From NCBI GenBank assembly GCA_016786845.1, contig JAEUVB010000019.1:23661-87660 (forward strand): a stretch of 64,000 nucleotides of DNA, read 5' to 3'. The position numbers and the translations under genes are program-made. The stretch is from Chitinophagaceae bacterium. GTDB taxonomy: Bacteria > Bacteroidota > Bacteroidia > Chitinophagales > Chitinophagaceae. Positions 2,064-50,003 of the stretch are shown piece after piece. The notes below the pieces were generated by a model. That model saw only the letters and a program-made list of their open reading frames with translations, was not told where the DNA came from and did not search any database. Numbering within the stretch: position 1 is the stretch's first letter; the number at the start of each line of letters is the position of its first letter.

Positions 2064-2207
2064 ATTCTTTTTTTTGAAGGCGCAAAGGTAACTATTTACA
2101 TGAAGGAGAAAAATCTGACTTCAACACGGTAAGCGGCATGGTCTTTATATGAATCCACATTTCCCCCTTTGTTTAAATCGACTATATTTGCCCACCAAAC
2201 ATCATTT

Positions 2208-3398: not shown

Positions 3399-3399
3399 C

Positions 3400-4026: not shown

Positions 4027-4089
4027 TTTTATCCCTTCGTCATAAGCAAGGTGCTCAGCCTGCTGAAGATTATAAACTATAAACAAATC

Positions 4090-4773: not shown

Positions 4774-5249
4774 CAATGTTGAATGATTAATGTTGAATGT
4801 TCAATAGGAGCTCAACATAAGCACTTTCTTCATCCACTTCCCGCCATACGCTGCTATCTCCGCCGAAAACAGGCGGAGGATATCCGCTGCTGTCGGGGCT
4901 AGATTTCGGCTGTATCTTTTTTTCAGCTTTTTTTCTGTCACTCCAATGCATGCATGGGTTATGATCTGAGCATTTTTTATGCATATCGCATATTGGTATC
5001 AGACGATATGGACCATAATATGTGAGTAGCTTTCATGTATTTATTAAACGCCTCAGAAGGCCACGGTCTCAGCCCTTTTCGTCACGAAATCGTCATGATT
5101 TATTCATTGTCCTTCTTTTCTGTCATACCATTGTCAAACTTTTTTTTTGAGCAAACAGCTTAAGGTGATTTGATTTTACATTCGTTTTCGACGCTTACCC
5201 CTGAGGGTAATATTGTTTACAAAAACCAAACTCACCAAAATCACATCTC

Positions 5250-8480: not shown

Positions 8481-9131
8481 CTAATCTTCAACTACATCAT
8501 AGTCTTTCTTTTTGCCGCCGAGGGCAAACTTCAAAATGACCGGGATGGTGGTCACAAGGATGATAGCAATAACAATAATTTCGAGGCGGTCTTTGATCCA
8601 TGGGAATTGTTTGCCCAGGATTAATCCGGTAAACATCATGGAGAAAACCCAGGCAAAGGAACCGATAATGTTGTACAAGCTGAATTTCTTATAATCCATT
8701 TGTACCATACCGGCTACTATAGGCACAAAGGTCCGGATAATGGGCACAAAACGGGCCGCAATAATGGTGAAGGCGCCATTCTTTTCATAGAATTTTTTCG
8801 CCGATTCGAGGTGGCGATGTTTGAAGAAAAAACTGTCTTTTTTCTGATATAATAAAGGTCCTGATTTTTTACCAAACCAATAGCCCACGAAATTGCCCAG
8901 GATACCGGCCACCGCAATCATAATCATGATGACGATATAGGGTACATGGAAAAATTCGGCTGCCAATTCTTCGGCATAGATACCGGCCACGAACAATAAA
9001 GAATCGCCGGGAAGAAAGAATCCTACAAATAAACCCGTTTCGGCGAAGATGACGAAAAGGAGCAAATACAAACCACCGTATTCGATATACCATTCGGGAT
9101 TCAGTAAGGTGTCTTTCAGCGTATGGAGCAT
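8481..9131 (-). CDS. DedA/VTT-domain membrane protein
   Basis: 216 aa. FAETGLFVGFFLPGDSLLF motif characteristic of the DedA family. Confidence 0.8.
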   Translation of the reverse strand: MLHTLKDTLLNPEWYIEYGGLYLLLFVIFAETGLFVGFFLPGDSLLFVAGIYAEELAAEFFHVPYIVIMIMIAVAGILGNFVGYWFGKKSGPLLYQKKDSFFFKHRHLESAKKFYEKNGAFTIIAARFVPIIRTFVPIVAGMVQMDYKKFSLYNIIGSFAWVFSMMFTGLILGKQFPWIKDRLEIIVIAIILVTTIPVILKFALGGKKKDYDVVED

Positions 9132-9247
9132 GAAATAAAATTAAGGTGGGCAAATATAGCGTATTCGGCATGAATAAATTGCCCTTAAGTACCTACTTAA
9201 ATTCCATTGTGCAGAGCCTATCCGTCAATTTGTCGCAAAAGAACTCC

Positions 9248-9277
9248 TTGGCAAACGATTTGACTAGAGTACATTTG
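9248..9277 (+). promoter_or_regulatory. candidate Bacteroidota sigma-A promoter upstream of grpE
   Basis: TACATTTG (9270-9277) matches the TAnnTTTG -7 box, with a TTG 19 nt upstream. The site lies about 29 nt before the grpE ATG. Confidence 0.3.
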
Positions 9278-9305
9278 CAAACTTAAAAAATATACTGAAA
9301 TAGCT

Positions 9306-9878
9306 ATGAGCCAAGCAAATCAAGACATTGTCAATGATACAGAGTTGACACCCGACCTGAACAGTGATGAGAATATGTCAGGAAATAGTCATATGAATGA
9401 CGAAATGACCAGTGAGGACGAATTGGGAAAATTGCAAAATGAAATCGGGGAGTGGAAGGATAAATATACCCGCTTACTCGCCGAATTTGAAAACTATAAA
9501 AAGCGTTCCCGTCAGGAAATGACCGATGTAATTAAAACTGCCGGCAAGGATATCGTACTGAGTTTGTTAGAGGTCGTGGATGACAGTGAAAGAGCAGAAA
9601 AGCAAATGGATTCCGCATCCGATATTCAAGCTTTGAAGGATGGGATGCAATTGGTGTTTAATAAGCTTAAACATGTACTGCAACAAAAAGGATTAAAGTC
9701 GTTCGACAGTATTCATACAGAATTTGATGTGGAGCGTCATGAAGCGGTGACGGAAATTCCGGCCCCTCACAAGGATTTGGAAGGCAAGGTTTTGGACGAA
9801 TTGCAAAAAGGATATTTGATGAATGATAAATTGATCCGCTATGCTAAAGTGGTGGTGGGCAAAGTATCGGAGGCCTAA
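9306..9878 (+). CDS. grpE: nucleotide exchange factor GrpE
   Basis: 190 aa. Coiled-coil N-terminal part plus conserved RLLAEFENYKKR and a C-terminal beta domain. Immediately upstream of dnaJ. Confidence 0.93.
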   Translation: MSQANQDIVNDTELTPDLNSDENMSGNSHMNDEMTSEDELGKLQNEIGEWKDKYTRLLAEFENYKKRSRQEMTDVIKTAGKDIVLSLLEVVDDSERAEKQMDSASDIQALKDGMQLVFNKLKHVLQQKGLKSFDSIHTEFDVERHEAVTEIPAPHKDLEGKVLDELQKGYLMNDKLIRYAKVVVGKVSEA

Positions 9879-9901
9879 GGCTTCCTTGAAATAAGAAAAA
9901 C

Positions 9902-11059
9902 ATGAAAAGAGATTTTTACGAAATATTAGGGGTTAGTAAAGGTGCTTCTGCCGATGAGATCAAGAAAGCGTATCGCAAGGTGGCCATGCAATTTCACCCC
10001 GATCGAAATCCGGGTGATAAATCGGCTGAAGACAAATTTAAAGAAGCCGCCGAAGCTTATGAAGTACTCAGTGATCCGGACAAAAAACAACGTTATGATC
10101 AATATGGACATGCCGGTGTAGGTGGTGCTGCGGGTGGTGGTTTTGGTGGCGGCGGTATGCGCATGGAGGATATTTTCCAGAATTTCGGGGATGTATTTGG
10201 TGATGATATGTTTGGGAGTTTCTTCGGCGGACAGCGCGGAGGCGGCGGTCGCCAAAGAGGTACAGGCAATCGCGGCAGTAACCTGAGGGTGAAAGTGAAG
10301 TTGAATTTTGAAGACATCCTGAAAGGTGCCCATAAAACGATCAAAGTTAAAAAATATGTACGCTGCGAACCTTGCACAGGCAGCGGGGCAAAAGATAAAT
10401 CATCGATACAAAACTGTAGTACTTGTAATGGTAGCGGACAAGTCCGTCGGGTGCAAAGTACTTTTTTAGGTCAAATGCAAACCGTCACCACTTGCCCAAC
10501 TTGTAATGGCGACGGCACACAGATTGCCAATAAGTGTAGCTCCTGTAAAGGCGAAGGTCGTGTATATGGTGAGGATACGATATCGATTGATATACCGGCC
10601 GGTGTGCAGGAAGGCATGCAACTGAGTGTACATGGCAAAGGTAATATGGGTGAACGCAATGGTCCTCCCGGCGACTTGCTTGTGGTGATTGAAGAAGAAA
10701 AGCACCCGGAGCTGATGCGCGAAGGACTCAATGTATTGTATGAATTACATATTTCCTTCCCTGACGTCGTGATGGGGAAAGAAGTGGAAGTTCCTACAGT
10801 AGGAGGAAAGGCAAAAATTAAAATTCCACCGGGCACTCAGGCCGGTAAAATATTGCGCTTGAAGGGAAAGGGTTTTCCAAGTGTGAACAGTTACGAAAAG
10901 GGTGATCAGCTCATCAATATCAATGTTTGGACTCCACAGAATCTAAGCTCCGAAGAAAAGGCGATGTTAGAAAAATTAAACAAGTCTCCAAATTTTGTTC
11001 CCAACGCTGCCAAATCCGACAAGAGTTTCTTTGATAAGATTCGGGAAGCGTTTAGCTAA
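9902..11059 (+). CDS. dnaJ: molecular chaperone DnaJ
   Basis: J domain with HPD ([10 protein letters not shown]), G/F-rich linker, and four CxxCxGxG repeats ([32 protein letters not shown]). Confidence 0.97.
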
Positions 11060-11070
11060 AGCATTCAACA

Positions 11071-11373
11071 TTATGGGCGGAGGTCTCTCTTATTTTTCTT
11101 CTCAAAATTCTTTGCGACGGCATCTTCCAAATTAACTCCGCATTGATTGGCCAGTGCGGTTAATACCCACAGAATGTCTGCCATTTCATCGGCGAGATGT
11201 TCGTCCGTTTCGCCGGGTTTGGATCTTTGTTCGCCATATTTCCGAACGAGTATACGTGCGAGTTCACCGGTTTCTTCGGTGAGTATGCCTAAGTTGGTGA
11301 GGGGTTGGAAATATCCGGAAGGCGTCGCACGAATCCACTGATCGACATCGTCCTGCAATTTTTTTAAGGTCAT
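11071..11373 (-). CDS. MazG-like nucleotide pyrophosphohydrolase domain protein
   Basis: 100 aa. EETGELARI ... EMADILWVL helix pairs typical of small MazG-family proteins. Confidence 0.7.
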   Translation of the reverse strand: MTLKKLQDDVDQWIRATPSGYFQPLTNLGILTEETGELARILVRKYGEQRSKPGETDEHLADEMADILWVLTALANQCGVNLEDAVAKNFEKKNKRDLRP

Positions 11374-11744
11374 ACATTCAAGGTTTTTGTTTTCATGATA
11401 TAGGCGATGCCATTGGCACGATCCTTCATTTTTTGAGCCAATATTCCTTCATGATATTGGTCAACAGTTTCGAAAAAATAATGTAACCAGATTTTAAAAT
11501 GTTCGGCGGTCAAAGGCGATTGTTGATGCAAATGGGTATGCAGGGTCATTACATTTTTTGCGTAATCATTTTTATCGAATATAATACTTTCCCAAAAGTC
11601 ACACAGCCGGGGCAGGTGAGTGGATAAATCGATTTTGGCTATTTCGGTAAACAAATAAGCAATGCGTTCGTCGGCCAATAATTTTTCATAAAATATCCGG
11701 ATTACCTGCTCAATATCGGCTCGGGTTTCAATATCTTTTCTCAT
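11370..11744 (-). CDS. group III truncated haemoglobin-like protein
   Basis: 124 aa. The all-helical sequence resembles the group III truncated globin family. It overlaps the downstream gene by 4 nt. Confidence 0.55.
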   Translation of the reverse strand: MRKDIETRADIEQVIRIFYEKLLADERIAYLFTEIAKIDLSTHLPRLCDFWESIIFDKNDYAKNVMTLHTHLHQQSPLTAEHFKIWLHYFFETVDQYHEGILAQKMKDRANGIAYIMKTKTLNV

Positions 11745-11747
11745 CGC

Positions 11748-12200
11748 TTATATTCTATTTTTTGAATCTATGATAATGGTTACAGGGCCGTCGTTGATTA
11801 ATTCTACCTGCATGTCGGCACCAAAAATACCTGTTGAAATAGGTTGGCCAAGATCTTTTTCCAATTGACGGACCATGGACTCATACAGCGGAATGGCTTG
11901 TTCGGGCCGTGCGGCTTGGATGAAGGAAGGGCGATTGCCTTTTTTGGTTGAAGCATGCAAGGTAAATTGACTAACCAATAAAAGACTTCCATTCACATCT
12001 TTCAAACTCAGATTCATGAGGCCTTGTTCATCATTGAAAATCCTCATTTGAGAAATTTTACCGCTCAGCCATTCGATGTCTTCCAGCGTGTCGGTATTTT
12101 CAATACCCAGTAATACCATAAAACCACGGGGTATGGATGCGTGTATAAGTCCTTCAATGCTGACCGATGCGCTGCTGACGCGTTGTATGACTGCTCTCAT
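11748..12200 (-). CDS. dtd: D-aminoacyl-tRNA deacylase
   Basis: 150 aa. MRAVIQRVSSASV... start and SQFTL, NDGPVT motifs of Dtd. Confidence 0.93.
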   Translation of the reverse strand: MRAVIQRVSSASVSIEGLIHASIPRGFMVLLGIENTDTLEDIEWLSGKISQMRIFNDEQGLMNLSLKDVNGSLLLVSQFTLHASTKKGNRPSFIQAARPEQAIPLYESMVRQLEKDLGQPISTGIFGADMQVELINDGPVTIIIDSKNRI

Positions 12201-33250: not shown

Positions 33251-33544
33251 TTAAGCGGCATTGACTTGTTTAATGCTATTCAATTCAGCCACTTTTAAAT
33301 TTTGTTCTTCTTCCAGGTCGAAATCATCTTGCAATCCAAGCCAAAATTTTGCGGATGTGCCAAAATACTTTGCAAGGCGTAATGCCGTATCGGCAGTAAT
33401 CCTTCGATTGCCCTTTAATATTTCACCTATTCTGGTCTGCGGAATAAATGTTTCTTTGGATAGCCGGTATGCGGTTATTTCCAGTGGCTCAAGGAATTCT
33501 TCTTTCAAGATTTCTCCGGGATGAATATTTTTTAGCTTTTTCAT
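33251..33544 (-). CDS. higA: HigA-family antitoxin (XRE HTH)
   Basis: 97 aa. IHPGEILKEEFLEPLEITAYRLSKETFIPQTRIGEILKGNRRITADTALRLAKYFG is the canonical HigA/VapI HTH. Confidence 0.9.
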   Translation of the reverse strand: MKKLKNIHPGEILKEEFLEPLEITAYRLSKETFIPQTRIGEILKGNRRITADTALRLAKYFGTSAKFWLGLQDDFDLEEEQNLKVAELNSIKQVNAA

Positions 33545-33555
33545 TTTTCTTAAGA

Positions 33556-33837
33556 TTAATGATAGTCTATAATTTCTAGTTCAGAGGCGTGATCATTTTT
33601 CCATTTGAAAATGATTCGCCATTGTTTGTTTATTCGAATACTGTGAAATCCCGAAAGATTTCCGCTGAGTTTTTCTAAATGATTTGCCGGAGGAATTCTG
33701 AGATCATTGATCGTTTGAGCATTATGGATCATCCTTAATTTTCTTCGAGCGACATGTTGAATATCCGCAGGAAGTTTTCTGGATTGATATCCTTCCCAAA
33801 TTTTTTCTGTTTCCTGATCAGCAAAACTTTTAATCAC
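33556..33837 (-). CDS. higB: HigB-family toxin (RelE/ParE superfamily)
   Basis: (V)IKSFADQETEKIWEG...LRIPPANHLEKLSGNLSGFHSIRINKQWRIIFKW..EIIDYH. A GTG start at 33837 is preferred over the TTG at 33861. Lies 11 nt upstream of higA. Confidence 0.88.
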   Translation of the reverse strand: MIKSFADQETEKIWEGYQSRKLPADIQHVARRKLRMIHNAQTINDLRIPPANHLEKLSGNLSGFHSIRINKQWRIIFKWKNDHASELEIIDYH

Positions 33838-34105
33838 GCTCAACGTATTTACTAACGTCAAAAGTATGTATTTTCATTTAAATGAGCAAATGTTAGGCGG
33901 GGGGCAAGAGTTTTAATGTTTAGTGTTTAGTTTTTAGTTGGTGCGATGTGGGGATGGGAGCGGGATCAAAAACTTGAGATCCCGGCTGACCCCGCATAGC
34001 GGGCAGAGTGAGAGCGGAGCATGAGATCGGGGAATGCATCTACAATGAAAGTAGTTTCAGCATTTCGAAGTACCCTTGAATAGAACGAAATCTATATTAA
34101 TGATT

Positions 34106-36345: not shown

Positions 36346-36618
36346 CGTGTCGCATTCATTGCAAAGCGTGTCGCATTCATTGCAAAACGTATCGCATCCA
36401 TTGCAAAACGCATCGCATCCATTGCAAAGCGTGTCGCATTCATTGCAAAACGTATCGCATCCATTGCAAAACGTATCGCATCCATTGCAAAACGCATCGC
36501 ATCGATTGCAAAACGTGTCGCATTCATTGCAAAGCGTGTCGCATCGATTGCAAAACGTGTCGCATTTATTGCAAAACGTGTCGACTCGATTGCAAAGCGT
36601 GTCGCATTCATTGCGAAA
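36346..36618. repeat. 13 x 21-bp tandem repeat array
   Basis: Unit CGTGTCGCATTCATTGCAAA(G/A) with a few variable positions. Unit starts counted at 36346, 36367 and so on to 36598. Confidence 0.95.
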
Positions 36619-36893
36619 CACCTAAATCCAAAAAATGGGCCCGCATATCTTAGGGCTCGTGCCCCACCTTCTTTCTTCGGGCATATCGCTGTATATAGTT
36701 ATGCATAAGTCGTGGAAGAAATGGCTCTATACCCAAAAGAGTAGAAGCGTCTATCGGATACAGCCATATGATTCTATTAAAGGATCATATCAACCGGATT
36801 CCACAAAATCTTCAACCGGATTCCATTCAAAAAGGATGGCATCCATAAAAATTAACTTTAAACAAATATTCTATAAATTTTAAAACAATCATA

Positions 36894-37841: not shown

Positions 37842-37870
37842 GTTGAATACTGAGAGCCCTGCTTCTCCGG

Positions 37871-37900
37871 GAGGCCGTCGTAAGATGGCCTCTTTTTTTT
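37871..37900 (+). terminator. Rho-independent terminator
   Basis: GAGGCC-gtcgtaagat-GGCCTC followed by a T8 run. Confidence 0.65.
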
Positions 37901-38122: not shown

Positions 38123-39910
38123 ATGAGCATAAATACACAATCACTGCAACCCGTTATTAACTTCCTTTGGACAGTTGCGGATGATGTTTTGGTGAATACC
38201 TACCAAAAAGGAAAATACAAAGATGTTATCCTGCCAATGGTAGTTATTCGCAGACTGGACTTGCTTTTAGAACCCACCAAAGAACAGGTTTTAAAGACTT
38301 TCAACGAATACAAATCAAAACTCCAAAACTTAGACAGCTTGCTGACCAACAGTAAACACGGTTCAGGACTGGCATTTTACAATACTTCAAAGTTTACCTT
38401 AAAAAAACTGCTTGACGACCCCAAAAACCTAAGAAGCAATTTTGAAAATTACCTAAACGGATTTTCTGATAATGTGCAGGACATCATCAAGCAATTCAAA
38501 TTCAGAAATGAAATTGAAACATTAGACGAAGCCGATATTCTGTTTTCACTCATTGAAAAATTCTGTTCTCCAAAAGTGGAATTGCACCCCGACAAATTGC
38601 CACCCTTGGCAATGGGTTATGTGTATGAAGATTTGGTAAGGCGATTTAACGAAGAAAACAACGAAGAAGCAGGAGAACACTTTACGCCAAGGGAAATCAT
38701 TGATTTAATGACACACCTTGTTTTCTTGCCGGTGAAAGACAAAATCAAGCAAGGCACTTATTTGATTTACGACCCATGCGTAGGTAGCGGTGGAATGCTC
38801 ACCATTGCCAAAAACTTTTTGCTCAATCCTGATGGACTGATTAAAAGCAACGCCACCGTTCATTTATACGGACAGGAAAGCACACCTTTCATTTATGCGA
38901 CTTGCAAAAGCGATATGCTGATAAAAGGCGAAGACCCAGACAAAATTGCTTATGGCAGCACGTTGAGTGCTTATGGTTTTGACAAGGATTTGAAGTTTGA
39001 CTTCATGTTGACTAATCCGCCTTATGGAAAGACCTGGGCACCTGATAAAAAAGCATTAGGCGTTGGACCTAAAGGAGCCATCATTGACAAACGCTTTATG
39101 CTGAAAGGCAGCTACAAAGAGGAGGCTGTTACCAGCCGTGTGAATGATGGACAGTTGATGTTTGTGTTGCACATGTTGAGCAAAATGAAAGACACCGAAC
39201 TCGGCAGCCGTATTGCTTCGGTTCACAATGGTTCGGCTTTGTTTACAGGGGATGCAGGACAAGGCGAAAGCGAAATTCGCAAATACATTATTGAAAACGA
39301 TTTATTGGAAGCCATTGTAGCATTGCCCAACGATATGTTTTACAACACAGGCATCCCTACTTACATTTTTCTTTTCACCAACCGAAAAGCAAAAAACCGA
39401 AAAGGGAAAGTGCAATTGATAAATGCTACTTCCGAAAAGTTCTATTATAAAATGCGAAAGTCATTGGGTAAAAAAAGATTGGAGTTCCTACCCGAACACA
39501 TTGCTTCGATAGAAAAAACCTTCCTGAATTTTGAAGAGAACGAATACAGCAAAATATTTGACAATGAAGATTTCGGTTATGCTCAAATAAGCGTGAACCG
39601 ACCGTTGAAAGACGAGAAAGGCAATCTTGTAACCGACAGCAAAGGCAAGCCAAAACCCGACCCAAAACTGAAAGACAGCGAAAACATTCCGTTGAAAGAA
39701 GATATACAGGAATTTTTTGAACGTGAAGTGTTGCCTTTTGCTCCTGATGCTTGGTGGGATAAGAAAGACACCAAAATTGGTTATGAAATAAACTTTGCCA
39801 AATACTTCTACAAACACCAACCGCCAAGGGCATTGACAGAAATTGCGAAAGACATTTTTGCCATTGAGCAGGAAACAGACGGTTTATTAAAAGAGATTAT
39901 TGAAGCATGA
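38123..39910 (+). CDS. hsdM: type I restriction-modification system methyltransferase subunit HsdM
   Basis: 595 aa. HsdM N-terminal helix bundle, SAM motif I DPCVGSGGML, catalytic motif IV LTNPPYG. ATGA overlap with hsdS. Confidence 0.93.
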   Translation: MSINTQSLQPVINFLWTVADDVLVNTYQKGKYKDVILPMVVIRRLDLLLEPTKEQVLKTFNEYKSKLQNLDSLLTNSKHGSGLAFYNTSKFTLKKLLDDPKNLRSNFENYLNGFSDNVQDIIKQFKFRNEIETLDEADILFSLIEKFCSPKVELHPDKLPPLAMGYVYEDLVRRFNEENNEEAGEHFTPREIIDLMTHLVFLPVKDKIKQGTYLIYDPCVGSGGMLTIAKNFLLNPDGLIKSNATVHLYGQESTPFIYATCKSDMLIKGEDPDKIAYGSTLSAYGFDKDLKFDFMLTNPPYGKTWAPDKKALGVGPKGAIIDKRFMLKGSYKEEAVTSRVNDGQLMFVLHMLSKMKDTELGSRIASVHNGSALFTGDAGQGESEIRKYIIENDLLEAIVALPNDMFYNTGIPTYIFLFTNRKAKNRKGKVQLINATSEKFYYKMRKSLGKKRLEFLPEHIASIEKTFLNFEENEYSKIFDNEDFGYAQISVNRPLKDEKGNLVTDSKGKPKPDPKLKDSENIPLKEDIQEFFEREVLPFAPDAWWDKKDTKIGYEINFAKYFYKHQPPRALTEIAKDIFAIEQETDGLLKEIIEA

Positions 39911-41145
39911 TAGCAACAGCACTTTTATATAAAGAAACCGAATTTAATTGGATGCCTGTTATTCCTGAGCATTGGGAAACAAAGAGAGCTAAAGCTATAT
40001 TTCAAGAACGTTCAATAAAGGGTTTTCCAGATGATCCGCTTTTAGCAGCTTCGCAAAAACAAGGCGTTGTTTTAAAAGAAATGCTTGAGCAACGAAGTAT
40101 GGAGGCTGTTCAAAACTTTGAAAGTTTCAAACTTGTTGAGAAAGATGATTTTGTGATTAGCCTTCGTTCTTTTGAAGGCGGGATTGAATTAGCATATTAC
40201 AGAGGCATTATTAGTCCGGTCTATTCGATATTTTATTTCAGAGAAAATAAGCATAACCGAGACTTCTTTAAATATCTGTACAAGTCTAGGATGTTTATAC
40301 AAGAGTTGAATGTTTACAAGAAAGGAATTAGAGATGGACAATCGATAAGTTATAGCGAGTTTGCAAATATCTATCTTCCAGTGCCGCCCAAAGAAGAGCA
40401 AGACGAAATTGTGCAATACCTCAAAGCACAAGAAGAAAAGATAAATTTGTTTATTCAGAAGAAGCAACGGTTTATTGAGTTGTTGAAGGAACAACGTTTA
40501 AGCATTGTAAATAATTACGTTACATCTGAAAATAAAAATTGGATTTGGTTAAGATTGAAAGATATAGTAACTGTCAATGACGAAGCATTAACAGAAAAAA
40601 CTGAAGATGATTTTTTGATAAGGTATATTGATATTGGAAATGTAAATTCATACGGTGACATTGCTGAAATCCAAGAATATGAGTTTAAGGATGCTCCGTC
40701 ACGGGCAAGAAGAATAGTCAGAAAAGGTGATGTTATAATTTCAACTGTGCGAACTTATTTAAAGGCAATTACTCTGATTGAAAGTGATGAAGATAATTTA
40801 ATCGCTTCAACAGGCTTTGCTGTTCTCAGACCAAAAGAAAATGTTCTTTCTGAATATTTGAATTTTGCTTTACGTGCCGAATACTTTATAAGTTCTGTAA
40901 TTCAGAATTCCTACGGAGTAAGTTATCCAGCAATAAACTCATCCACTTTGAGTTCACTTAAAATTGTAATTCCCAAGTCAACATCAGAACAACAAGAAAT
41001 AATAAACAAGATAAAATCCGAAACCGCAACCATAGACACTGCCATAGCCAAAGCCGAACGGGAAATAGAACTTATTCGGGAATACAAAGAAGCCATGATA
41101 GCTGAGGCGGTAATGGGGAAAAGAAAAATTAACTTTGCACATTAA
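39907..41145 (+). CDS. hsdS: type I R-M specificity subunit HsdS
   Basis: 412 aa. Two variable target-recognition halves separated by conserved coiled-coil spacers (LPVPPKEEQDEIVQYL.. and IPKSTSEQQEIINKI..). Confidence 0.9.
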   Translation: MIATALLYKETEFNWMPVIPEHWETKRAKAIFQERSIKGFPDDPLLAASQKQGVVLKEMLEQRSMEAVQNFESFKLVEKDDFVISLRSFEGGIELAYYRGIISPVYSIFYFRENKHNRDFFKYLYKSRMFIQELNVYKKGIRDGQSISYSEFANIYLPVPPKEEQDEIVQYLKAQEEKINLFIQKKQRFIELLKEQRLSIVNNYVTSENKNWIWLRLKDIVTVNDEALTEKTEDDFLIRYIDIGNVNSYGDIAEIQEYEFKDAPSRARRIVRKGDVIISTVRTYLKAITLIESDEDNLIASTGFAVLRPKENVLSEYLNFALRAEYFISSVIQNSYGVSYPAINSSTLSSLKIVIPKSTSEQQEIINKIKSETATIDTAIAKAEREIELIREYKEAMIAEAVMGKRKINFAH

Positions 41146-41156
41146 TAAATTGTAGA

Positions 41157-42287
41157 ATGCTAGACGAGAATAACAATATGGTAAATGAGCCTCAGGTTGA
41201 ATATGAGGATATTGATACAGGGGTGTTAATGGAACGACCATTCAATCCTGCACAAATAGATATTTCCACAAAGAATCCTACTATTGATTTATTGGTAAAA
41301 AGATTGCAGTCTTCACCACCGGAAATAGACCTATATCCTGACTTTCAAAGAAAAGATGATTTATGGGATGCAGGTAAGCAAAGCAGATTAATTGAATCAC
41401 TTTTAATTAAATTTCCATTACCAGCATTTTATTTTGATGGAACCGATAACAATAAATGGTTAGTTGTTGATGGTTTGCAACGACTAAGTGCAATAAGGAA
41501 TTTTATGATTAAAAAATCATTAAAGTTGACAAGTCTTGAATTTTTAAAAAAACTGGAAGGTGACGGTTTTGATGATTTGCCAAGAAACCTGCAACGACAA
41601 ATCGAAGAAACACAGGTAACAGCCTACATTATTAATCCCGGAACTCCTGACGAAGTGAAGTTCAATATTTTTAGACGTGTGAACACGGGTGGATTAATAA
41701 TGGAACCGCAGGAGATTCGTCATGCAATGAATCAGGGTGTGCCAGCTGTTTATGTCAAAGAATTGGCACAAACACCTGAATTTATTGAGGCTACTGAAAA
41801 AGCCTTAAGTCCTAATAGGATGTTGGACAGAGAGTTTGTTACACGTTTTATTGCATTCTATTTGAATGACTATAAAGCCTACATCCCAGATTTAGACACG
41901 TTTATGAATTCAAGTATGAGTGCGATAAGAAACCTATCAGATTCAGATAAGGAAAAAATGAAAAAAGATTTCATTTCAGCTATGTCTCTTTCAAAAGAGA
42001 TTTTTAATAATTGGGCCTTTCGCAAATCGGATAAATACCCAGAGAAAAGAAAACCAATTAACAAAGCACTGTTTGAGGTTTGGAGTGTAACACTCGCAAG
42101 ATTGGATGATGAACAACGAAAAATTATTAAAGAGAAAAAGGATATTTTATTTTATAAGTCAATTAGCTTAGTTAAAGAGGACTCAACCTTTTTCAATAGT
42201 ATCACTACTTCAACAGGTAATAAGTCCAGTGTGGCCTATCGTTTTTCAAGTATCGAAAAAATAATTCAAGAAACATTAGAGACATGA
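41157..42287 (+). CDS. DUF262-like (ParB/sulfiredoxin-fold, GmrSD N-terminal-type) protein lacking a DUF1524 nuclease domain
   Basis: 376 aa. PDFQRKDDLWDAGKQSRLIESLL, the DGxQR motif (VVDGLQRLSAI), and FRRVNTGGLIMEPQEIRHA. Lies 11 nt after hsdS. Confidence 0.8.
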   Translation: MLDENNNMVNEPQVEYEDIDTGVLMERPFNPAQIDISTKNPTIDLLVKRLQSSPPEIDLYPDFQRKDDLWDAGKQSRLIESLLIKFPLPAFYFDGTDNNKWLVVDGLQRLSAIRNFMIKKSLKLTSLEFLKKLEGDGFDDLPRNLQRQIEETQVTAYIINPGTPDEVKFNIFRRVNTGGLIMEPQEIRHAMNQGVPAVYVKELAQTPEFIEATEKALSPNRMLDREFVTRFIAFYLNDYKAYIPDLDTFMNSSMSAIRNLSDSDKEKMKKDFISAMSLSKEIFNNWAFRKSDKYPEKRKPINKALFEVWSVTLARLDDEQRKIIKEKKDILFYKSISLVKEDSTFFNSITTSTGNKSSVAYRFSSIEKIIQETLET

Positions 42288-43381
42288 TAAAACAAATTGA
42301 AATAAAGAATTTCAAATCAATCAAAAAAGCTGAGATAAGTGTTTCAAATTTAAATCTGCTGATGGGTTTGAATGGAATGGGTAAAAGCTCATTTATACAA
42401 ACTTTGCTAATATTGATGCAAAGTGATAAACTGGAAGAAAGAGTAATTGACTTAAATGGCATTTTGGCACAAATTGGTCAAGGAAGAGACGCGCTATACC
42501 AGTATGCCGAAGAAGAAAAAATTGTTTTTGAATTAACTTTTGAAGGACATCCTAAATACTCCTGGAAATTTGCCTATCAAAAAGATAAAGAAAAACTTGC
42601 TTCTGAAAATGGTTATACCAAAGAGGAAATGAATTTTTTCAGAAAAAACACTAGTCCATTTCAATACATACCTGCAAACAGAATTGGACCAATGGATATT
42701 TACGAAGCCTCAAGTGTTGTTGTCTCGGATAAAAGGCAGTTGGGCTTATTAGGAGAGTATGCTGCTTACTACATAAATGTTTTTGGTCAGGAATATGTAA
42801 TAAGTGAGAAACTAAGGCATACAAATGCGACTTCTTCAAATTTACTATCTCAAATAAATGCGTGGATGAAAGAAATTTCACCAGGGGTGTCATTAAACAC
42901 CAAGTATGTTCCGGAAGTAAACAAGGTAATTTTAGATTACCAGTTTGACTTACTGAACGATAAAACTAACTCGTTTCGACCTAAAAATGTAGGCTTTGGT
43001 ATTTCTTATGTGTTACCGATCGTATTAGCATTACTTACCGCTGAAGAAGGGAAAATCATTGTTATTGAAAATCCTGAATCACATATTCACCCAAGAGGGC
43101 AAGCCGAATTAGGCAAGCTCATTTCATTGGCTGCAAGTATTGGAGCACAGTTGTTTGTTGAAACGCATAGCGACCATATATTAAATGGCATCCGAGTAGC
43201 GGTTAAAGAAAATTTAGTGGACAAGTCAAAAGTAAATGTGATGTATTTTGAAAAAACTACCACCGAAAAAGAGCAGTTTACAAAAATTACTCAGATAAAG
43301 GTTGATACAAAGGGAGAACTAAGTGATTATCCAAAAAATATGATTGATGAATGGGGCAATCAACTTTTTAAATTGATGTAG
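42284..43381 (+). CDS. SMC/ABC-type AAA ATPase (AAA_15/21, DUF3696-like)
   Basis: 365 aa. MIKQIEIKNFKSIK.. start, Walker A GLNGMGKSS, Walker B/D-loop IIVIENPESHIHP, H-loop ETHSDHILNGIR. ATGA overlap with the upstream gene. Confidence 0.8.
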   Translation: MIKQIEIKNFKSIKKAEISVSNLNLLMGLNGMGKSSFIQTLLILMQSDKLEERVIDLNGILAQIGQGRDALYQYAEEEKIVFELTFEGHPKYSWKFAYQKDKEKLASENGYTKEEMNFFRKNTSPFQYIPANRIGPMDIYEASSVVVSDKRQLGLLGEYAAYYINVFGQEYVISEKLRHTNATSSNLLSQINAWMKEISPGVSLNTKYVPEVNKVILDYQFDLLNDKTNSFRPKNVGFGISYVLPIVLALLTAEEGKIIVIENPESHIHPRGQAELGKLISLAASIGAQLFVETHSDHILNGIRVAVKENLVDKSKVNVMYFEKTTTEKEQFTKITQIKVDTKGELSDYPKNMIDEWGNQLFKLM

Positions 43382-43383
43382 TA

Positions 43384-44238
43384 ATGGAGGTATTTTACAA
43401 TGAACTTTCAAGCCGTCCTTTAGCCGAAAATCATGATGAGGCAAAATCAAGGGTTTTAGGTCTTCTAAATACAATGAAAAGTTTGCGAGATTTTGACATT
43501 AACATCATGCGAGCTCATAATGACTTTTACGCGGAGCAGATTTCTGAAGAATACACATTCGGGAGTTTTTTTGGCGATACATCTGTTAGTATGGATTTGA
43601 AATTACTTTTGCGAACGATTGTTGCAAACCCTTTTATTGAAGATGAAGATTCATACGAAGCTGAGCAATTCATTACAAGCACATTTTCAACTAAAAATCA
43701 AGATAATCAAGATGTAAATCCCGAAGGTCTGGCAAGTGCTTTTGTCTTTAATTCACCTTCGATTTCGTTAAGCAGCCACCCACATTGGAGAAATAATATT
43801 TTACATTTAAGTGTTACCAACGCTGATGTTCTACAAACCACAACTCAGGTTGAGATATTGAATTTGTATTCAACGGAATGCATAAATCAAGCAGTATTTC
43901 AAAGTTGGTTAAGCTATCTGAATCCGCCAATTGAGTTAAATTCAGAAGAAAATATTTACAAGGTATTTTCACCTGAACAATTTCAATTCGAAAGCAAAGC
44001 AATTCAAGACATTACATCATGGTTTTATGATGACAAAAGATATTTAATTCGTGTTAAGGAGTTACTAGAAGATATTCCACAAAACCCATTTAAAGGAGGA
44101 AAAGGTAAGACAGAACCGTTGAGTGGCAAAGGTGGGCGTGCTTCAAAGCGGATTGTAAAAAAAGATAGAATTGTTTACACATACACCGAAGATAAAATCA
44201 TCATACATCAATGTAGAGGGCATTATGATGATAAATAA
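43384..44238 (+). CDS. two-domain protein: unknown N-terminal ~190 aa fused to a complete YoeB/Txe-like mRNA interferase domain
   Basis: Residues ~192-284 align by eye along the whole of E. coli YoeB. DKRYLIRVKELLEDIPQNPFKGGKGKTEPL...KRIVKKDRIVYTYTEDKIIIHQCRGHY corresponds to DKRIVKKINELIKDTRRTPFEGKGKPEPL...RRITEEHRLVYAVTDDSLLIAACRYHY. Confidence 0.75.
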   Translation: MEVFYNELSSRPLAENHDEAKSRVLGLLNTMKSLRDFDINIMRAHNDFYAEQISEEYTFGSFFGDTSVSMDLKLLLRTIVANPFIEDEDSYEAEQFITSTFSTKNQDNQDVNPEGLASAFVFNSPSISLSSHPHWRNNILHLSVTNADVLQTTTQVEILNLYSTECINQAVFQSWLSYLNPPIELNSEENIYKVFSPEQFQFESKAIQDITSWFYDDKRYLIRVKELLEDIPQNPFKGGKGKTEPLSGKGGRASKRIVKKDRIVYTYTEDKIIIHQCRGHYDDK

Positions 44239-44247
44239 TTGAGATAA

Positions 44248-47200
44248 ATGAAAACAGATACAACAGAAAAAGGATTAGAAGCCCACATAACACGGCACTT
44301 GTGTTTGGTGAATGTTTTTGAAGAAAGGCATTTCAGCAATTACAACCGTGTAGATTGTGTTGATGAAGATTTGCTATTCAATTTTCTGCAAGCCACACAG
44401 GAAAAGGAAGTAATGAAACTGCAAACCATTCACGGCAGCAATTTTAGAAGCAAGGTTTTATATCGCGTAAACAATCAAATAAAAACCTTTGGCATTATTG
44501 AAGTTCTCCGTAAAGGAATAACAGACAATAACATTAAACTGAAATTGTTTTTTGATAAGCCAGTTTCTAACCTAAACGAAAAAGATTTAGCTCTATACGA
44601 CCAAAACATTTTCTCCGTAACAAGACAAGTTCATTACAGCAATCAAAATGAAAATTCGTTGGATTTGGTTGTATTCATAAACGGCTTACCCATCATCACT
44701 TTTGAACTGAAAAACGAACTGACCAAACAAACGGTAAAAGATGCCATCAAGCAATACAAAACCAACCGTGACCCTAGAGAAGAATTGTTTCGATTAGGTC
44801 GATGAATGGTTCACTTTGCAGTGGACAGCGAACAAATTTGGATGGCAACCCACTTGAAGGGTGAAAACACTTATTTTCTACCATTCAACAAGGGGTATAA
44901 CAATGGGGCAGGAAATCCGCCAAATCTCAACGGCATTAAAACCGATTATCTCTGGAAAGACATTTTAACCAAAGTCCGTTTAACCAACATCATTCAGAAC
45001 TACGTTCAGTTGTTTGAAGAAGAAACGGAAAAGATTCTGCCTGATGGAAAGGTAAAAAAAGAGAAAGTAAAGAAATTGATTTTTCCACGCTACCATCAAA
45101 TTGATGCGGTAGATAAACTCCTAAGTAATGCCAAAGAAAACGGAGCAGGAAAACGCTACTTAATTCAACATTCGGCAGGTTCAGGGAAATCAAATTCTAT
45201 TTCATGGTTGGCTCATCAATTGGTTGGCTTGTTTGACAAAAATAACGAGAATACCGTTTTCGATACTGTAATTGTTGTAACCGACCGTAAAGTGTTGGAT
45301 GCACAAATCCGCAACAACATCAAACAGTTTGAACAAGTAAAAGGAGTTGTAGAAGCCATTACCGAAGGAAGTAAACAACTGAAAACTGCTTTAGAAGAAG
45401 GCAAGAAAATCATCATCACCACCATTCAGAAATTCCCATACATCGTAAATGAAATTGGGGAACTGCCCGGAAATAAGTTTGCTATTATCATAGACGAAGC
45501 ACACAGCAGTCAAAGCGGAAACACCGCAGGAAAACTAAATGAAACCCTTGCCAAGGACTTTGAAAAAGTGCAGGTAGATGATGATGAATTTGTGTTTGTG
45601 GACAAAGACCAATATGACGAACTGACTTCCGAAGATTTAGTGGTGGATATTGTGAAAGGCAGAAAGATGCTGACCAATGCCAGCTATTTTGCTTTTACCG
45701 CCACCCCAAAGAACAAAACACTTGAACTGTTCGGAGAGAAATACAACGACAATGGAAAAGAGAAATTCAGGGCATTTCATCTTTACTCTATGAAACAAGC
45801 CATTGAGGAAAATTTCATTTTAGATGTATTGCAGAATTACACCACTTACCAAAGTTATTACGCTTTACTCAAGAGAATTGAAGATGACCCGGCTTATGAT
45901 AAAAACAAAGCACAGAAAAAACTGAAAATATTTGTTGAGAGCCATTCACATGCTATTGCAAAGAAAACGACTTTAATGGTTGACCATTTTATGGACAATG
46001 TAATCCGTAAATCTAAAATTAACGGATTGGCTAAAGCAATGGTAGTTACAAGCAGCCGCAGAAATGCGGTGAAATACAAAAAGGCGTTTGATAAATATTT
46101 GGCAGACACAGGAAACCCATACAAAGCAATCGTAGCTTTTTCGGGAGAAATAGACGGACAAACAGAAGCTGCATTAAATCATTTTTCAAGTGCTGCAATT
46201 CCTGACGAGTTTAAAAAATCTGAATTCCGTTTTTTGATTGTGGCAAACAAATACCAAACAGGATTTGATCAACCACTTTTGCATACTATGTATGTTGACA
46301 AGAAACTCGGTGGAGTTAATGCTGTTCAAACGCTTTCAAGACTGAACAGAACAACATCAGGAAAGAAAGACACATTTGTGTTGGACTTTGCCAATGATGC
46401 AGATGATATCAAGAAATCCTTTGACCCATTTTTTGAAACCACCATATTAGGCGAAGCTACCGACCCGAATAAACTATTTGACTTGCAAAGCTCCTTAGAT
46501 GCATTTCAGGTTTATACACCCGAACAAGTTCAGGAGTTTTCGCAAAAGATGGTTACGAATGTTCCTGTTGACCAATTGCATAGCATTTTAGATGTAGCAG
46601 CAGAAGTATTCAGAACTTGCTTAACAGAAGAACAGCAAGACGATTTTAGAGCCAAATGCAAGACTTATGTTCGCTTGTATGTTTTCCTTGCTCAAATCGT
46701 TCCATTTATAAATCCATACTTGGAAAGACTTTATTTGTTCCTGAACCACTTGCAAAACAAATTGGGCAAGCAACGTGACGAAGATTTAGCACAGGGCATT
46801 TTGGACAATATTGACATAGACAGTTACAGACTGCAAAAGGAAGGAGAATTTAATATTCAGTTGCAACAAGGTGACGAGTTAAAACCTATTCCGACAGACA
46901 TGAGAGGTGGTGCAGCCGAGCCAGAAATGGAATATTTGTCTAACATCGTAAAAGCATTTAACGACCGCTTTGGGACCCAGTTCACCAACGAAGATAAAGT
47001 TCGTAAAATGGCAACCGATCTAATGCAAGACGTAAAGGAAGACAAGGCAGCAATGGACAATATCAATGCTTCACTTCATAAAAATGACATACAAAATGCT
47101 CAAATCACTTTCACTGACATTTTGAAAGAGAAAATGATAAACCATATTGACAGTAATTTTGAAGTATTTAAGGAGTACAATGACAACCCTGAGTTCAAAG

Positions 47201-47265
47201 CGTTTTTGGCTGGTCAGATGTTTAAGTTGTTGATTAACGATATTGGATCATTTAAATCAATGTAA
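44248..47265 (+). pseudogene. hsdR: type I restriction endonuclease subunit HsdR interrupted by one in-frame TGA (44803-44805)
   Basis: The ORFs 44248-44805 (185 aa, PD-(D/E)xK nuclease part: DLVVFINGLPIITFELK) and 44806-47265 (819 aa) are in the same frame. The larger ORF carries Walker A SAGSGKSN, the DEAH box IIIDEAHSSQ, and helicase C. The junction reads ..LGR*MVHFAVD. Confidence 0.85.
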
Positions 47266-47351: not shown

Positions 47352-48215
47352 ATGATCAATATTCGTGAAATTTTGGATGGCCTGTATCCCGATAAAACGG
47401 GTGAAGATTTAATTTCGATACTTGAAAAAGAGGGATTTCTTGAAACGGTTAAAAAATCAGAAATCCAGTTAAACGAATTAATTCTTAATCAAAGCGATTA
47501 TGTGAAAAAGTATGGTATGATCCCTATAGGAGCTTTAATTGCCAATCAACTCACTGTAGTAAACACCAAACTAAAAGATCTTTCAAATGCCAAGCGGCAA
47601 GAACTTGAACATTTATTGAGCGATATTACTTTCAAACAATTTGAATTGCTTGCTGATCACATTAGGTTAAAGAAGAAGGAATTGTTCGAGCAAATTGCGT
47701 TTGCATTAGAGAAGACCTGCGAATATCATAACTATGACAAGCACCAGTTATTAGACTACTTGCGGATTGATTCTATATTGTCATTCAAGGCCTCAATGAA
47801 GTCGGGAGAACGATTGAAAGTAAATTTGTCAAGCATGCCTTATCTTGAATGGAATGGCGACCCTAAGCTTTTTACTGATTTCATGTCAATTTTCAAGGAA
47901 CGAGGTCTTGCGACAAGCAATTCTAGTATCTTTAAATTATTTAAGAAGCAGAATACTCCCCTTGAAATTCAATTGAATGTATTGAAGGCTGATCTAATTC
48001 TTCAATTTTTTCAATACTTAAAGTTGAACAAATTGGTTTCAATTATACCCAAGGGCAGCATATATGATGTTCTAATGGTTCATGTACTTGACTTCGAGAA
48101 GGATTTTTTGAAATATCAAACACCTAAGGCAAGAATGAATGTGCTGAAAAATAGTCATTCGAAATGGAATGAAAATCAGCAACTTATACTAAAATGGACA
48201 AAGGGAATAGTTTAA
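47352..48215 (+). CDS. hypothetical protein (no recognisable domain)
   Basis: 287-aa AT-rich ORF on the same strand, 86 nt after hsdR. I found no motif. Confidence 0.5.
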   Translation: MINIREILDGLYPDKTGEDLISILEKEGFLETVKKSEIQLNELILNQSDYVKKYGMIPIGALIANQLTVVNTKLKDLSNAKRQELEHLLSDITFKQFELLADHIRLKKKELFEQIAFALEKTCEYHNYDKHQLLDYLRIDSILSFKASMKSGERLKVNLSSMPYLEWNGDPKLFTDFMSIFKERGLATSNSSIFKLFKKQNTPLEIQLNVLKADLILQFFQYLKLNKLVSIIPKGSIYDVLMVHVLDFEKDFLKYQTPKARMNVLKNSHSKWNENQQLILKWTKGIV

Positions 48216-48311
48216 GTATACTTTACCTACTACTTTCCCTGTAACTTTCCCTATAATTATTCAGATTAGATTTTCAAGGGATAGATTGGATATTTACAAA
48301 AAATATAAATT

Positions 48312-48767
48312 ATGAATTACGTTACAAATCTTATTCAAACAAACAAATTAAAACCGGCTGATGTTATCGTATTAAAGAAAACACTCTTTGGAATGCTTGA
48401 TCATTATGCAATTTTTCTTGGCTATGATGAGTTTGGTCATCCCTTTTTTGTTGCGAATTATACTAAAGGAATAAACAGAATATCCTATGTAGAATTAAAA
48501 TCCTTTTTGCAAATAATGGAGCCCCAACGAATTGTACGATTCAATGGTACTAATTCCCAAAGAAATGCTGCTGTTCAAAGAGCAATTTCTAGATTGGGTG
48601 AACGAAACTATAACTACTTTGAAAACAATTGCGAACATTATGCCAACTATGTACAACACGGTGTTCATTATAGCAGTCAGTCAGATGCGTTTAAGGATAG
48701 TATAAAAACCGTTGTGCCACTTGCTTTGGGTGTCGCGTTTTTAGCTGCAATATTTGGGAAGGAGTAA
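48312..48767 (+). CDS. LRAT/H-rev107-like NlpC/P60-superfamily enzyme with C-terminal transmembrane anchor
   Basis: 151 aa. His31 (DHYAIFLG), His43 twelve residues later (FGHPFF), catalytic Cys107 in NNCEHYANY. C-terminal helix VVPLALGVAFLAAIFG. Confidence 0.7.
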   Translation: MNYVTNLIQTNKLKPADVIVLKKTLFGMLDHYAIFLGYDEFGHPFFVANYTKGINRISYVELKSFLQIMEPQRIVRFNGTNSQRNAAVQRAISRLGERNYNYFENNCEHYANYVQHGVHYSSQSDAFKDSIKTVVPLALGVAFLAAIFGKE

Positions 48768-48839
48768 TTTTCACTAGGCTATTCTCTAATGGTTATCTAG
48801 GTTCAGGATAGTAAATTCTGAACATCGGGATACTTCTGA

Positions 48840-50003
48840 TCATCCCAAGTCTTCAATTGGTTCAATTACATCGTTGGTGGAAGAAATTAAAACGGAACTA
48901 ATTTCATTAAAATATGGTTTTACAGCCGTATAAAGTTTATTTAAATTCTCAATTAAAAAATTAATTATATCCGTCCATTCTTCTTCATTAAAGTAGTTTA
49001 ATCCTGTTTTGTAAACAGCGACAACTGACTTTTTTAAGTTGTCGTGACGTTCCCATACAAGACCATCGCCAAAAGAATTATCGATAATGTCTTTATGTTT
49101 TAATAATGCATCAAAAAGGATTTTATTTTCAATTGCCAAGGATCTGCCAAAGTTTAATGCAACACAAGCCTGTGTGCCAGTAATAATGACTTGGAATGAG
49201 ACGTAGGTTATACCTGTCCCGCCAGCATATAAAGCGTTATCTTTTGTAGGATTCGAATTTTGAAAGAGTGCCGATTTGTTTTTGATGGAATTTAGAAATT
49301 TGGACCAAAAAGTGAGTCGGATTTTATATCGATGTCTTGCTTCTTCTTCAATATTAATTTCTTCTTGAACTTTATTCGTCATTGAGATAATATAGTCCTG
49401 GGCATCTTTAGTAGGAATTATTTGTTCTATGTTTAAAAAATTTAGTTCACCCAATTGATATGGCGTTACTTTCATACATTGTAATTGTATTTTAAAATTT
49501 AAGAGCCATAACACAGTTGAAGTTACTTCTTTCCTGAAGTTTGCTGCAACCAAAATGATCCTTTGGGTGGCCTGTTGATTGATTACAATATCTGAGTAGT
49601 CGATATCATTATAGAATTCCGTTATTAACTCTTGGGCATTTTTACCGTTTGATTGTTGATCAAGGTAACTCTGAAAAATTTTGCGGACTTCTTCCTTTGT
49701 CAGCGTGCTACAATATGACGCATATTTTAAGGCTTGCCAAGTAACATCCCTTCCTGAGTCATCTAATTTATTTTCTATGATGACTAAGTTTCCATTTTTA
49801 TCAAGTGCTAATAGATCCAATCGTTCATTTGTTTCAGAGAAATCATTGAATTCTTTTTGAATAATTAGTAATTTTTCTCCCAGGCAATCAGGGTTTTTGG
49901 CTATCCATTCTTGAAGATGTTTACGCTCTTGGAAACCCAATTCGGTAAATGTTTTTTTTAGCAGAGGAGATATAGTGTTGGTTTGCTTTTCTATTAAGAA
50001 CAT
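48840..50003 (-). CDS. PD-(D/E)xK nuclease-like N-terminal domain fused to a DUF4268-like C-terminal domain
   Basis: 387 aa. ERLDLLALDKNGNLVIIENKLDD (D..ExK) near the N-terminus. The C-terminal half (FWSKFLNSIK...GLVWER..) resembles DUF4268. Confidence 0.6.
   Translation of the reverse strand: MFLIEKQTNTISPLLKKTFTELGFQERKHLQEWIAKNPDCLGEKLLIIQKEFNDFSETNERLDLLALDKNGNLVIIENKLDDSGRDVTWQALKYASYCSTLTKEEVRKIFQSYLDQQSNGKNAQELITEFYNDIDYSDIVINQQATQRIILVAANFRKEVTSTVLWLLNFKIQLQCMKVTPYQLGELNFLNIEQIIPTKDAQDYIISMTNKVQEEINIEEEARHRYKIRLTFWSKFLNSIKNKSALFQNSNPTKDNALYAGGTGITYVSFQVIITGTQACVALNFGRSLAIENKILFDALLKHKDIIDNSFGDGLVWERHDNLKKSVVAVYKTGLNYFNEEEWTDIINFLIENLNKLYTAVKPYFNEISSVLISSTNDVIEPIEDLG

Follow-up and report, generated by a model that had tools for sequence, protein, structure and literature searches.

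Menshen is an anti-phage system whose products NsnA, NsnB and NsnC have been proposed to serve as the sensor, the transducer and the effector, respectively (Li et al. 2025, NAR 53:gkaf357, PMC12065111). In that work, NsnC is described as an N-terminal "inactive PIN" domain (inPIN, 35 families) followed by a member of one of 15 effector families, nine of which fall into the BECR/RelE superfamily, and YoeB is named as one of their relatives that have been validated experimentally; AlphaFold 3 models place the N-terminal domain of NsnC between two DUF3696 domains of NsnB in 23 of the 24 systems modelled, and BREX, type I or III restriction-modification (R-M), or methylase genes are neighbours of 27.9% of Menshen operons (PMC12065111). 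Experimental defence has been reported only for the Menshen system of Solibacillus silvestris, which protected against T2, T4, T6 and Fado (work of Millman et al. that is cited in PMC12065111). A 2026 preprint (10.64898/2026.08.28.747851) deals with another BECR effector and disputes the inactivity of the PIN domains of NsnC. In this article, we analyse a stretch of 64,000 nucleotides (nt) from a Chitinophagaceae bacterium (contig JAEUVB010000019.1, positions 23,661 to 87,660 of the forward strand, hereafter the window), in which a first-pass annotation had singled out the open reading frame (ORF) at 43384-44238 as a YoeB-like toxin domain fused behind an unknown domain. Our results make it very likely that the genes at 41157-44238 constitute a Menshen (NsnA-NsnB-NsnC) anti-phage system inside an R-M operon, and that the flagged ORF encodes its effector NsnC, with a YoeB-type ribonuclease (RNase) that is probably anchored on NsnB.

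The architecture, the effector polymorphism, the lack of an antitoxin, the notion of an effector under ATPase regulation and the association with R-M genes were already published in 2025 (PMC12065111), and nothing at this locus is new in kind; the first-pass annotation did not recognise that the genes belong to a named and already analysed system. As a Menshen locus it would be a clean case in which an immune system under ATPase control employs a ribosome-targeting RNase of the toxin-antitoxin (TA) type as its output. The chemistry and the ribosome binding of YoeB are well understood, which makes a YoeB-type NsnC a convenient entry to Menshen activation. The practical value is twofold: annotations as "type II TA toxin" can be corrected, and a Menshen effector that lends itself to biochemistry is put forward.

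The Menshen genes and the YoeB domain of NsnC

The features on which the identification is based are listed here with their coordinates in the window, strand and source; lengths are in amino acids (aa).

41157-42287, + strand: nsnA, DUF262/ParB-like protein (GmrSD_N), candidate sensor, 376 aa (PADLOC, Pfam)
42284-43381, + strand: nsnB, ABC-type ATPase with C-terminal DUF3696, 365 aa (PADLOC, Pfam)
43384-44238, + strand: nsnC, Menshen effector by assignment, 284 aa (translation, Pfam, PADLOC, AlphaFold2 model)
43384-43971, + strand: N-terminal domain of NsnC, aa 1-196, alpha/beta, with an N-terminal FNELS motif (PADLOC NsnC)
43987-44226, + strand: YoeB/Txe-type RNase domain of NsnC, aa 202-281 (Pfam, TIGR02116, PDB sequence, Foldseek)
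44113-44115, 44167-44169, 44221-44223 and 44224-44226, + strand: catalytic codons of NsnC for E244, R262, H280 and Y281, respectively

All three Menshen protein types are present, and their genes are adjacent, co-oriented, arranged in the order A-B-C and conserved as a unit. NsnA matches the PADLOC profile PDLC03877 over residues 13-375 (profile of 385 positions, E=7e-134) and the Pfam family GmrSD_N (E=1.9e-19), and its translation contains the DGLQR motif (…VVDGLQRLSAI…). NsnB, whose gene overlaps nsnA by 4 nt, matches PDLC03878 over its full length (E=6.4e-110) as well as the Pfam families AAA_15, AAA_21 and DUF3696, the last of these at residues 313-364. The stop codon of nsnB and the ATG of nsnC are 2 nt apart, just as the first-pass annotation had it when it described the preceding gene as that of an ATPase ending 2 nt before the flagged ORF. 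The Walker A motif of NsnB (GLNGMGKS at aa 28) and its IENPESHIHP motif are kept in eight of eight loci. NsnC is matched by the PADLOC NsnC profile PDLC03895 at residues 1-181 (profile positions 1-179 of 281, E=9.6e-30).

As a side observation on NsnB, its Walker-B-like region (aa ~258-270) has the sequence IIVIENPESHIHP in the window, as it does in each of the seven further loci that were checked, and thus carries E-N-P-E, whereas D-E-P-E is the Walker-B-like motif in many related ABC/OLD-type ATPases.

The nsnC ORF (+ strand) begins with an ATG, and this start codon is supported because M1 is invariant and all family alignments start at residue 1. The C-terminal part of the 284-aa product matches the Pfam family PF06769 (YoeB_toxin) at residues 202-281, covering all 80 of the 80 profile positions (E=8.1e-17, 61.5 bits with a cut-off of 27), and scores 57.0 bits against TIGR02116, the NCBIfam Txe/YoeB equivalog with a curated cut-off of 51.8. 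A phmmer search of PDB sequences aligns residues 206-281 with residues 9-84 of E. coli YoeB (2a6q_E, E=8.5e-12). The bounds of the domain are ~199-281, followed by a three-residue tail, DDK, so that the initial claim of a full-length YoeB is correct with respect to completeness and slightly generous with respect to the range of ~192-284 given for it. The motifs KTEPL (from residue 242), KKDRIVY (from 259) and RGHY (from 278) supply E244, R262, and H280 and Y281, which align with E46, R65, H83 and Y84 of YoeB in E. coli numbering; the four catalytic positions are those that had been read from the sequence at the outset. In an alignment of 43 full-length homologues (42-91% identity), no substitution is seen at R262 or H280, and at least 90% of the sequences keep E244 and Y281.

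The AlphaFold2 model of NsnC, built on the alignment of these 43 homologues, has a predicted local distance difference test (pLDDT) score of 90.1 and a predicted template modelling (pTM) score of 0.82. Foldseek aligns its C-terminal domain with YoeB 2a6r_C over 83 of 83 residues (E=2.1e-7, TM(target) 0.90, root mean square deviation (rmsd) 1.5 A, 36% identity). There are 110 clusters of full-length NsnC homologues. Among the checks put forward with the first-pass annotation, profile search and structure prediction on the C-terminus and a database search for the same fusion architecture all turned out in its favour, the second of them at the level of a predicted fold. Judged by its sequence, the C-terminal part of ~85 residues is a YoeB-type RNase with its catalytic residues intact. 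Since both the fold and the catalytic residues are conserved, the domain would be expected to depend on the ribosome and to cleave mRNA at the A site.

The N-terminal domain and the antitoxin question

The N-terminal domain was initially described as unknown. This holds insofar as no Pfam match was obtained for the 22 family members scanned and no PDB sequence relative was found by profile search, but the domain does have the PADLOC NsnC match described above. That match stops at profile position 179 of 281, and the native C-terminus of the profile is therefore a different domain; in this best-matching profile it is DUF2103-like. An exhaustive HMMER search with an N-domain profile yielded 779 clusters with E<=1e-3, of which 288 reach E<=1e-10, and across the 779 clusters the match always begins at residue 1 of a protein of ~275-320 aa. 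A word-indexed search with the N-domain profile gave almost only YoeB fusions, and it was the exhaustive search that exposed the wider family. The 115 best full-length representatives all match PADLOC NsnC profiles, and their C-terminal payload is YoeB_toxin in 30 cases, DUF2103-like in 54 and ParE_toxin in one; proteins P0132-P0134 are examples. The N-terminal domain of NsnC thus serves as a portable adaptor for payloads that can be exchanged, YoeB being one of several; the same adaptor carries YoeB, DUF2103-like or ParE-like modules. Within the same proteins, the N-terminal domain diverges faster than the YoeB domain (33-45% compared to 55-76% identity in distant members). An early suggestion that this domain possibly docks on the DUF262/ATPase pair is favoured by its portability and by the published AlphaFold 3 models, which put such domains between the DUF3696 domains of NsnB (PMC12065111). 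A cis-acting inhibitor or a sensor, the other roles that the first-pass annotation offered for the domain, may be alternatives.

Modelled alone (residues 1-196), the N-terminal domain reaches an AlphaFold2 pLDDT of 89.3, and the published "inactive PIN" assignment was not reproduced by Foldseek (best PDB E=0.32). Because the fold is well predicted yet has no Foldseek relative, the domain may not be a PIN derivative at all. Conservation within the family bears on a related proposal, in which NsnC is a dual-nuclease effector whose N-terminal PIN-like domain is itself an active nuclease, as the preprint (10.64898/2026.08.28.747851) argues for NsnC of the BECR-Tox2 type in disputing an inactive PIN domain. 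The acidic residues E7, D65, E92, E94 and E114 are conserved within the YoeB-linked subfamily, which would favour it. However, across the 115 representatives of the wider family N6 is the only invariant residue, those conserved in at least 90% are E7, S9, P83, G115, L116, A119 and W135, and there is no conserved set of four acidic residues, so that an active PIN nuclease is not favoured for the family. Considering also that Foldseek returned no PIN match, we regard a second active nuclease in NsnC as very unlikely.

A stand-alone YoeB-type toxin would be ~84 aa long and encoded next to a Phd/YefM gene, whereas NsnC is a 284-aa fusion. None of the 85 small ORFs (45-160 aa, both strands) at 33-55 kb of the window matches the Phd/YefM family, and the antisense ORFs within the operon have no Pfam match, in agreement with the first-pass statement that no antitoxin ORF lies nearby. 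No Phd/YefM gene was found in any homologous locus whose genes carry Pfam calls. The absence of an antitoxin is what would be expected for a Menshen effector, and we conclude that NsnC has a domain of the YoeB family but does not belong to a YefM-YoeB type II TA system. The interpretation given in the first-pass annotation, that of a regulated defence effector tied to the DUF262/ATPase pair rather than a classical TA toxin, has held up in the PADLOC assignment of all three proteins and in ~17 syntenic loci.

The classical interpretation would treat NsnC as a type II toxin in which the N-terminal domain is a cis-fused substitute for YefM, or whose antitoxin is encoded elsewhere, with neighbouring genes that are unrelated to it. 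The C-terminal domain does exceed the cut-off of the Txe/YoeB equivalog, the pTM of 0.82 for the two-domain protein may suggest a fixed packing of the domains against each other, and databases label homologues as "Txe/YoeB family addiction module toxin". On the other hand, the N-terminal domain resembles neither Phd/YefM nor any Pfam family, it is also found on non-YoeB effectors, unlike an antitoxin that is specific for YoeB, NsnA and NsnB always precede NsnC, and the 33-55 kb region holds no Phd/YefM gene. Consequently, we consider a classical toxin most improbable here and retain the identification of NsnC as a Menshen effector. In public records, the NsnC homologues P0010, P0074, P0085, P0094 and P0104 (280 aa) are named "Txe/YoeB family addiction module toxin" or "type II toxin-antitoxin system YoeB family toxin"; such names are misleading in that they cover only the last 80 residues and imply a TA system that is absent.

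The sole classical TA pair of the region is located at 33254-33861 (- strand), where a HigB-like toxin gene (33559-33861, - strand, PF05015, E=9.5e-26) adjoins an HTH_3 antitoxin-like gene (33254-33544, - strand). It lies ~10 kb upstream of nsnC and is unrelated to it.

The type I restriction-modification operon and related loci

The Menshen genes are flanked by three R-M genes; L numbers designate homologous loci.

38123-39910, + strand: hsdM, opening gene of the operon, methyltransferase subunit of the type I R-M system (ORF and homologues)
39907-41145, + strand: hsdS, type I R-M specificity subunit (Methylase_S in the equivalents of L001, L005 and L011)
44248-47265, + strand: hsdR, type I R-M restriction subunit, with an in-frame TGA at 44803-44805 (Pfam)

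The hsdM homologues in L001, L005 and L011 carry HsdM_N and N6_Mtase (tblastn identity 93-97%). The hsdS gene overlaps hsdM by 4 nt and ends 11 nt before nsnA, and hsdR begins 9 nt past the end of nsnC; from hsdM-hsdS onward, the gaps between the genes of the operon are, in order, -4, 11, -4, 2, 9 and 0 nt. A strong terminator-like hairpin is found upstream of hsdM at 37869-37894, and there is no comparable hairpin on the + strand inside the operon. The arrangement hsdM-hsdS-nsnA-nsnB-nsnC-hsdR looks like one predicted transcription unit, with Menshen nested in the R-M operon.

The related loci come from metagenomes and 13 species-representative genomes, all of them Bacteroidota, and include Chitinophaga-like, Ginsengibacter, Flavobacterium, Sphingobacterium, Bacteroides, Cyclobacteriaceae, Saprospiraceae and Crocinitomicaceae loci. 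Wherever the sequence extends far enough (~17 distinct loci), the genes for NsnA and NsnB directly precede the YoeB fusion, and in ~8 of the ~17 HsdR is encoded directly downstream of nsnC. The trio occurs without nearby R-M genes in L004, L006, L007, L019, L021, L022, L025 and L026. It is kept both with and without R-M genes and is therefore a conserved unit, for which an R-M host operon is frequent but optional.

The in-frame TGA of hsdR stands where intact relatives have a conserved Cys codon, TGC (RLGR[C]MVHFAVD), the intact relatives being 1002 aa (L009 and L011) and 1010 aa (L005) long. It directly precedes an ATG (TGAATG) and would split HsdR into pieces of 185 and 819 aa, of which the former has the Pfam match HSDR_N and the latter SWI2_SNF2, ResIII and T1R_D3. 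Because the same TGA is present in the independent assemblies L012 (SRR10555721) and L013 (SRR12425363), it is real rather than a sequencing error, and most likely it represents a plain nonsense mutation. The nsnABC genes are intact here as well as in independent assemblies, and six contigs that stem from independent runs encode an identical protein. In this strain, Menshen is intact, and restriction may have been lost. Selenocysteine was considered as a reading of the TGA and rejected: a stretch of 68 nt that begins with the TGA is no more stably folded than shuffled sequences (z=-1.18) and forms no structure resembling a selenocysteine insertion sequence.

Signs of gene loss are also seen in other loci. 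In L001, from a Ginsengibacter metagenome-assembled genome, hsdR (8898-11866) is frameshifted into 562 and 426 aa at a site that differs from that in the window. L024 retains a piece of NsnC (residues 133-283, at 5001-5420) with no NsnB detected, and L027 has short NsnB and NsnC remnants at 177-1305 that adjoin hsdR. These fragments suggest that Menshen decays in some lineages. One may ask if the window itself holds a decaying, non-functional remnant in an eroding defence island, as the nonsense codon of its hsdR, the frameshift in L001 and the fragmentary Menshen genes in L024 and L027 could indicate. Such decay is extremely unlikely for nsnABC, given that all three genes are full length, the Walker A motif and the catalytic residues are intact, the same protein recurs unchanged in the six contigs, and the catalytic positions show strong purifying conservation across the family.

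The position of nsnABC raises the question of a functional link with the surrounding genes. Menshen could be wired to HsdMSR as a guard resembling PrrC, with an RNase that is silenced by the R-M complex and fires when an anti-restriction factor of a phage disables it. In the E. coli prr locus, prrC occupies the slot between hsdS and hsdR. The nsnABC genes lie in the same slot, 11 nt after hsdS and 9 nt before hsdR, no terminator is present within the operon, and HsdR adjoins ~8 of the ~17 loci of this subfamily, which is above the 27.9% of Menshen operons overall that have BREX, R-M or methylase neighbours. Several observations make this coupling unlikely, though it is the most interesting of the rival readings: in about half of the loci the trio is found away from R-M genes, so that it is a self-sufficient unit; hsdR is disrupted here and, at another site, in L001, with nsnABC intact; and a Menshen system gave defence on its own (PMC12065111). 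A broader version, in which Menshen in this Bacteroidota subfamily is an integral, co-transcribed arm of the type I R-M operon and the YoeB effector is a backstop for cases when restriction fails or is inhibited, is likewise doubtful. If it were true, the fixed nonsense codon in hsdR would leave Menshen as the sole remaining restriction-linked output in this strain. The identification of nsnABC as a Menshen system in an optional R-M setting remains our preferred reading.

Other genes have been gained in and around the operon. In L001, genes with SLFN_AlbA_2/HATPase_c_4 and 23S_rRNA_IVP domains (2203-4053 and 5388-5753) lie between hsdM, hsdS and nsnA, and it seems that defence cargo has repeatedly been inserted into the slot of the R-M operon that holds nsnABC. 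Downstream of hsdR, the window encodes a 287-aa protein with no Pfam match (47352-48215), an LRAT/NlpC-P60-like protein of 151 aa (48312-48767) and, on the - strand, a DUF4268 protein of 387 aa with NucS_C/PD-(D/E)XK-like N-terminal matches (48840-50003); these three genes within 47352-50003 may be further cargo of the defence island. Between a gene for a protein that binds cyclic nucleotides (cNMP) and a gene with a CarboxypepD_reg domain, a tandem array at 36346-36619 consists of 13 copies of a 21-nt unit with the consensus CGTGTCGCATTCATTGCAAAA (87% matches). The array is open in several frames on both strands and gives rise to repetitive pseudo-ORFs, for example NATRFAI repeats.

Proposed mechanism and comparison with known systems

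For this locus, we observe the family membership of the three proteins, their synteny, the YoeB fold with its catalytic residues, and the exchange of effectors behind the N-terminal domain; how NsnC docks, what triggers its activation, which RNA it cuts and what becomes of the cell are what we infer. The proposed order of events draws on published predictions and on analogy with PARIS, Septu and Gabija. The N-terminal ~195 residues of NsnC would most likely anchor it to an oligomer of the NsnB ATPase, at the DUF3696 domains of the latter, and restraint by the NsnB complex would take the place of the YefM antitoxin. Phage DNA would be sensed by NsnA through its DUF262/ParB-like module, NsnB would couple the signal from NsnA to the binding or hydrolysis of ATP, and NsnC would then be released or allosterically switched on. 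The YoeB domain would cut mRNA in the ribosomal A site and shut down translation in the infected cell, with abortive infection as a possible outcome.

Several points weigh against the Menshen identification and the mechanism built on it. The PADLOC NsnC profiles cover only the N-terminal domain of NsnC, and the full-length YoeB variant is therefore not among the PADLOC seed types. The model of that domain has no significant Foldseek match, to PIN or any other fold, in the PDB (best E=0.32) or in BFVD. For the YoeB-type subfamily, RNase activity, ribosome dependence, contact between NsnB and NsnC, and the trigger are predictions. Finally, hsdR is broken in this strain, and the operon may be under relaxed selection.

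Among described systems, Menshen (Millman et al. 2022) is the closest. It shares with this locus the gene order, a DUF262/ParB-like NsnA, an ABC ATPase-DUF3696 NsnB and a two-domain NsnC in which a family-specific N-domain precedes a BECR-type RNase, as well as the frequent embedding in type I R-M loci and the common occurrence in Bacteroidota. The tested archetype from S. silvestris differs in that its effector is a YafQ-like "PB-BECR1" domain with an H-R-H triad behind an inPIN11 N-domain, whereas the locus described here has a bona fide YoeB domain with E-R-H-Y, and its N-domain is nearest to a PADLOC profile with a DUF2103-like tail.

E. coli YoeB (2a6q/2a6r/4v8x) has the same fold as NsnC's C-terminal domain (TM 0.90, rmsd 1.5 A, 36-37% identity), equivalent catalytic residues and full-length Pfam and TIGRFAM matches. 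However, YoeB is a stand-alone protein of ~84 aa that is paired with YefM, and NsnC is a fusion behind a 196-aa domain, with a DDK extension and no Phd/YefM partner; NsnC is found in a defence operon and YefM-YoeB in a two-gene autoregulated module.

Similarity to PARIS (AriA/AriB), Septu (PtuA/PtuB) and Gabija (GajA) is found in the ATPase: NsnB matches AriA, GajA and PtuA-type profiles, and published models have an ATPase dimer that holds a single effector asymmetrically. The effector of these systems is a Toprim or HNH deoxyribonuclease, in contrast to the RelE-superfamily RNase of NsnC, and Menshen has a separate DUF262 protein as its presumed sensor.

Cami1, the CARF-RelE protein of type III CRISPR-Cas systems, resembles NsnC in that a ribosome-targeting RNase of the RelE superfamily is placed behind a regulatory N-terminal domain and acts as an immune effector with no antitoxin, and Cami1 is weakly present in the Foldseek list for NsnC; on the N-terminal domain of NsnC, the effectors found most often apart from YoeB are DUF2103-like modules. 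The activator of Cami1 is cyclic oligoadenylate, which binds to CARF, whereas NsnC has no CARF domain and its control presumably comes from the NsnB ATPase.

PrrC, of the prr (EcoprrI) locus, is likewise an RNase effector with ATPase-based control that is nested between hsdS and hsdR. No sequence relationship was found between PrrC and the Menshen proteins, and Menshen also occurs without R-M genes, whereas PrrC consists of one polypeptide, which cleaves tRNA-Lys and which the R-M enzyme keeps silent.

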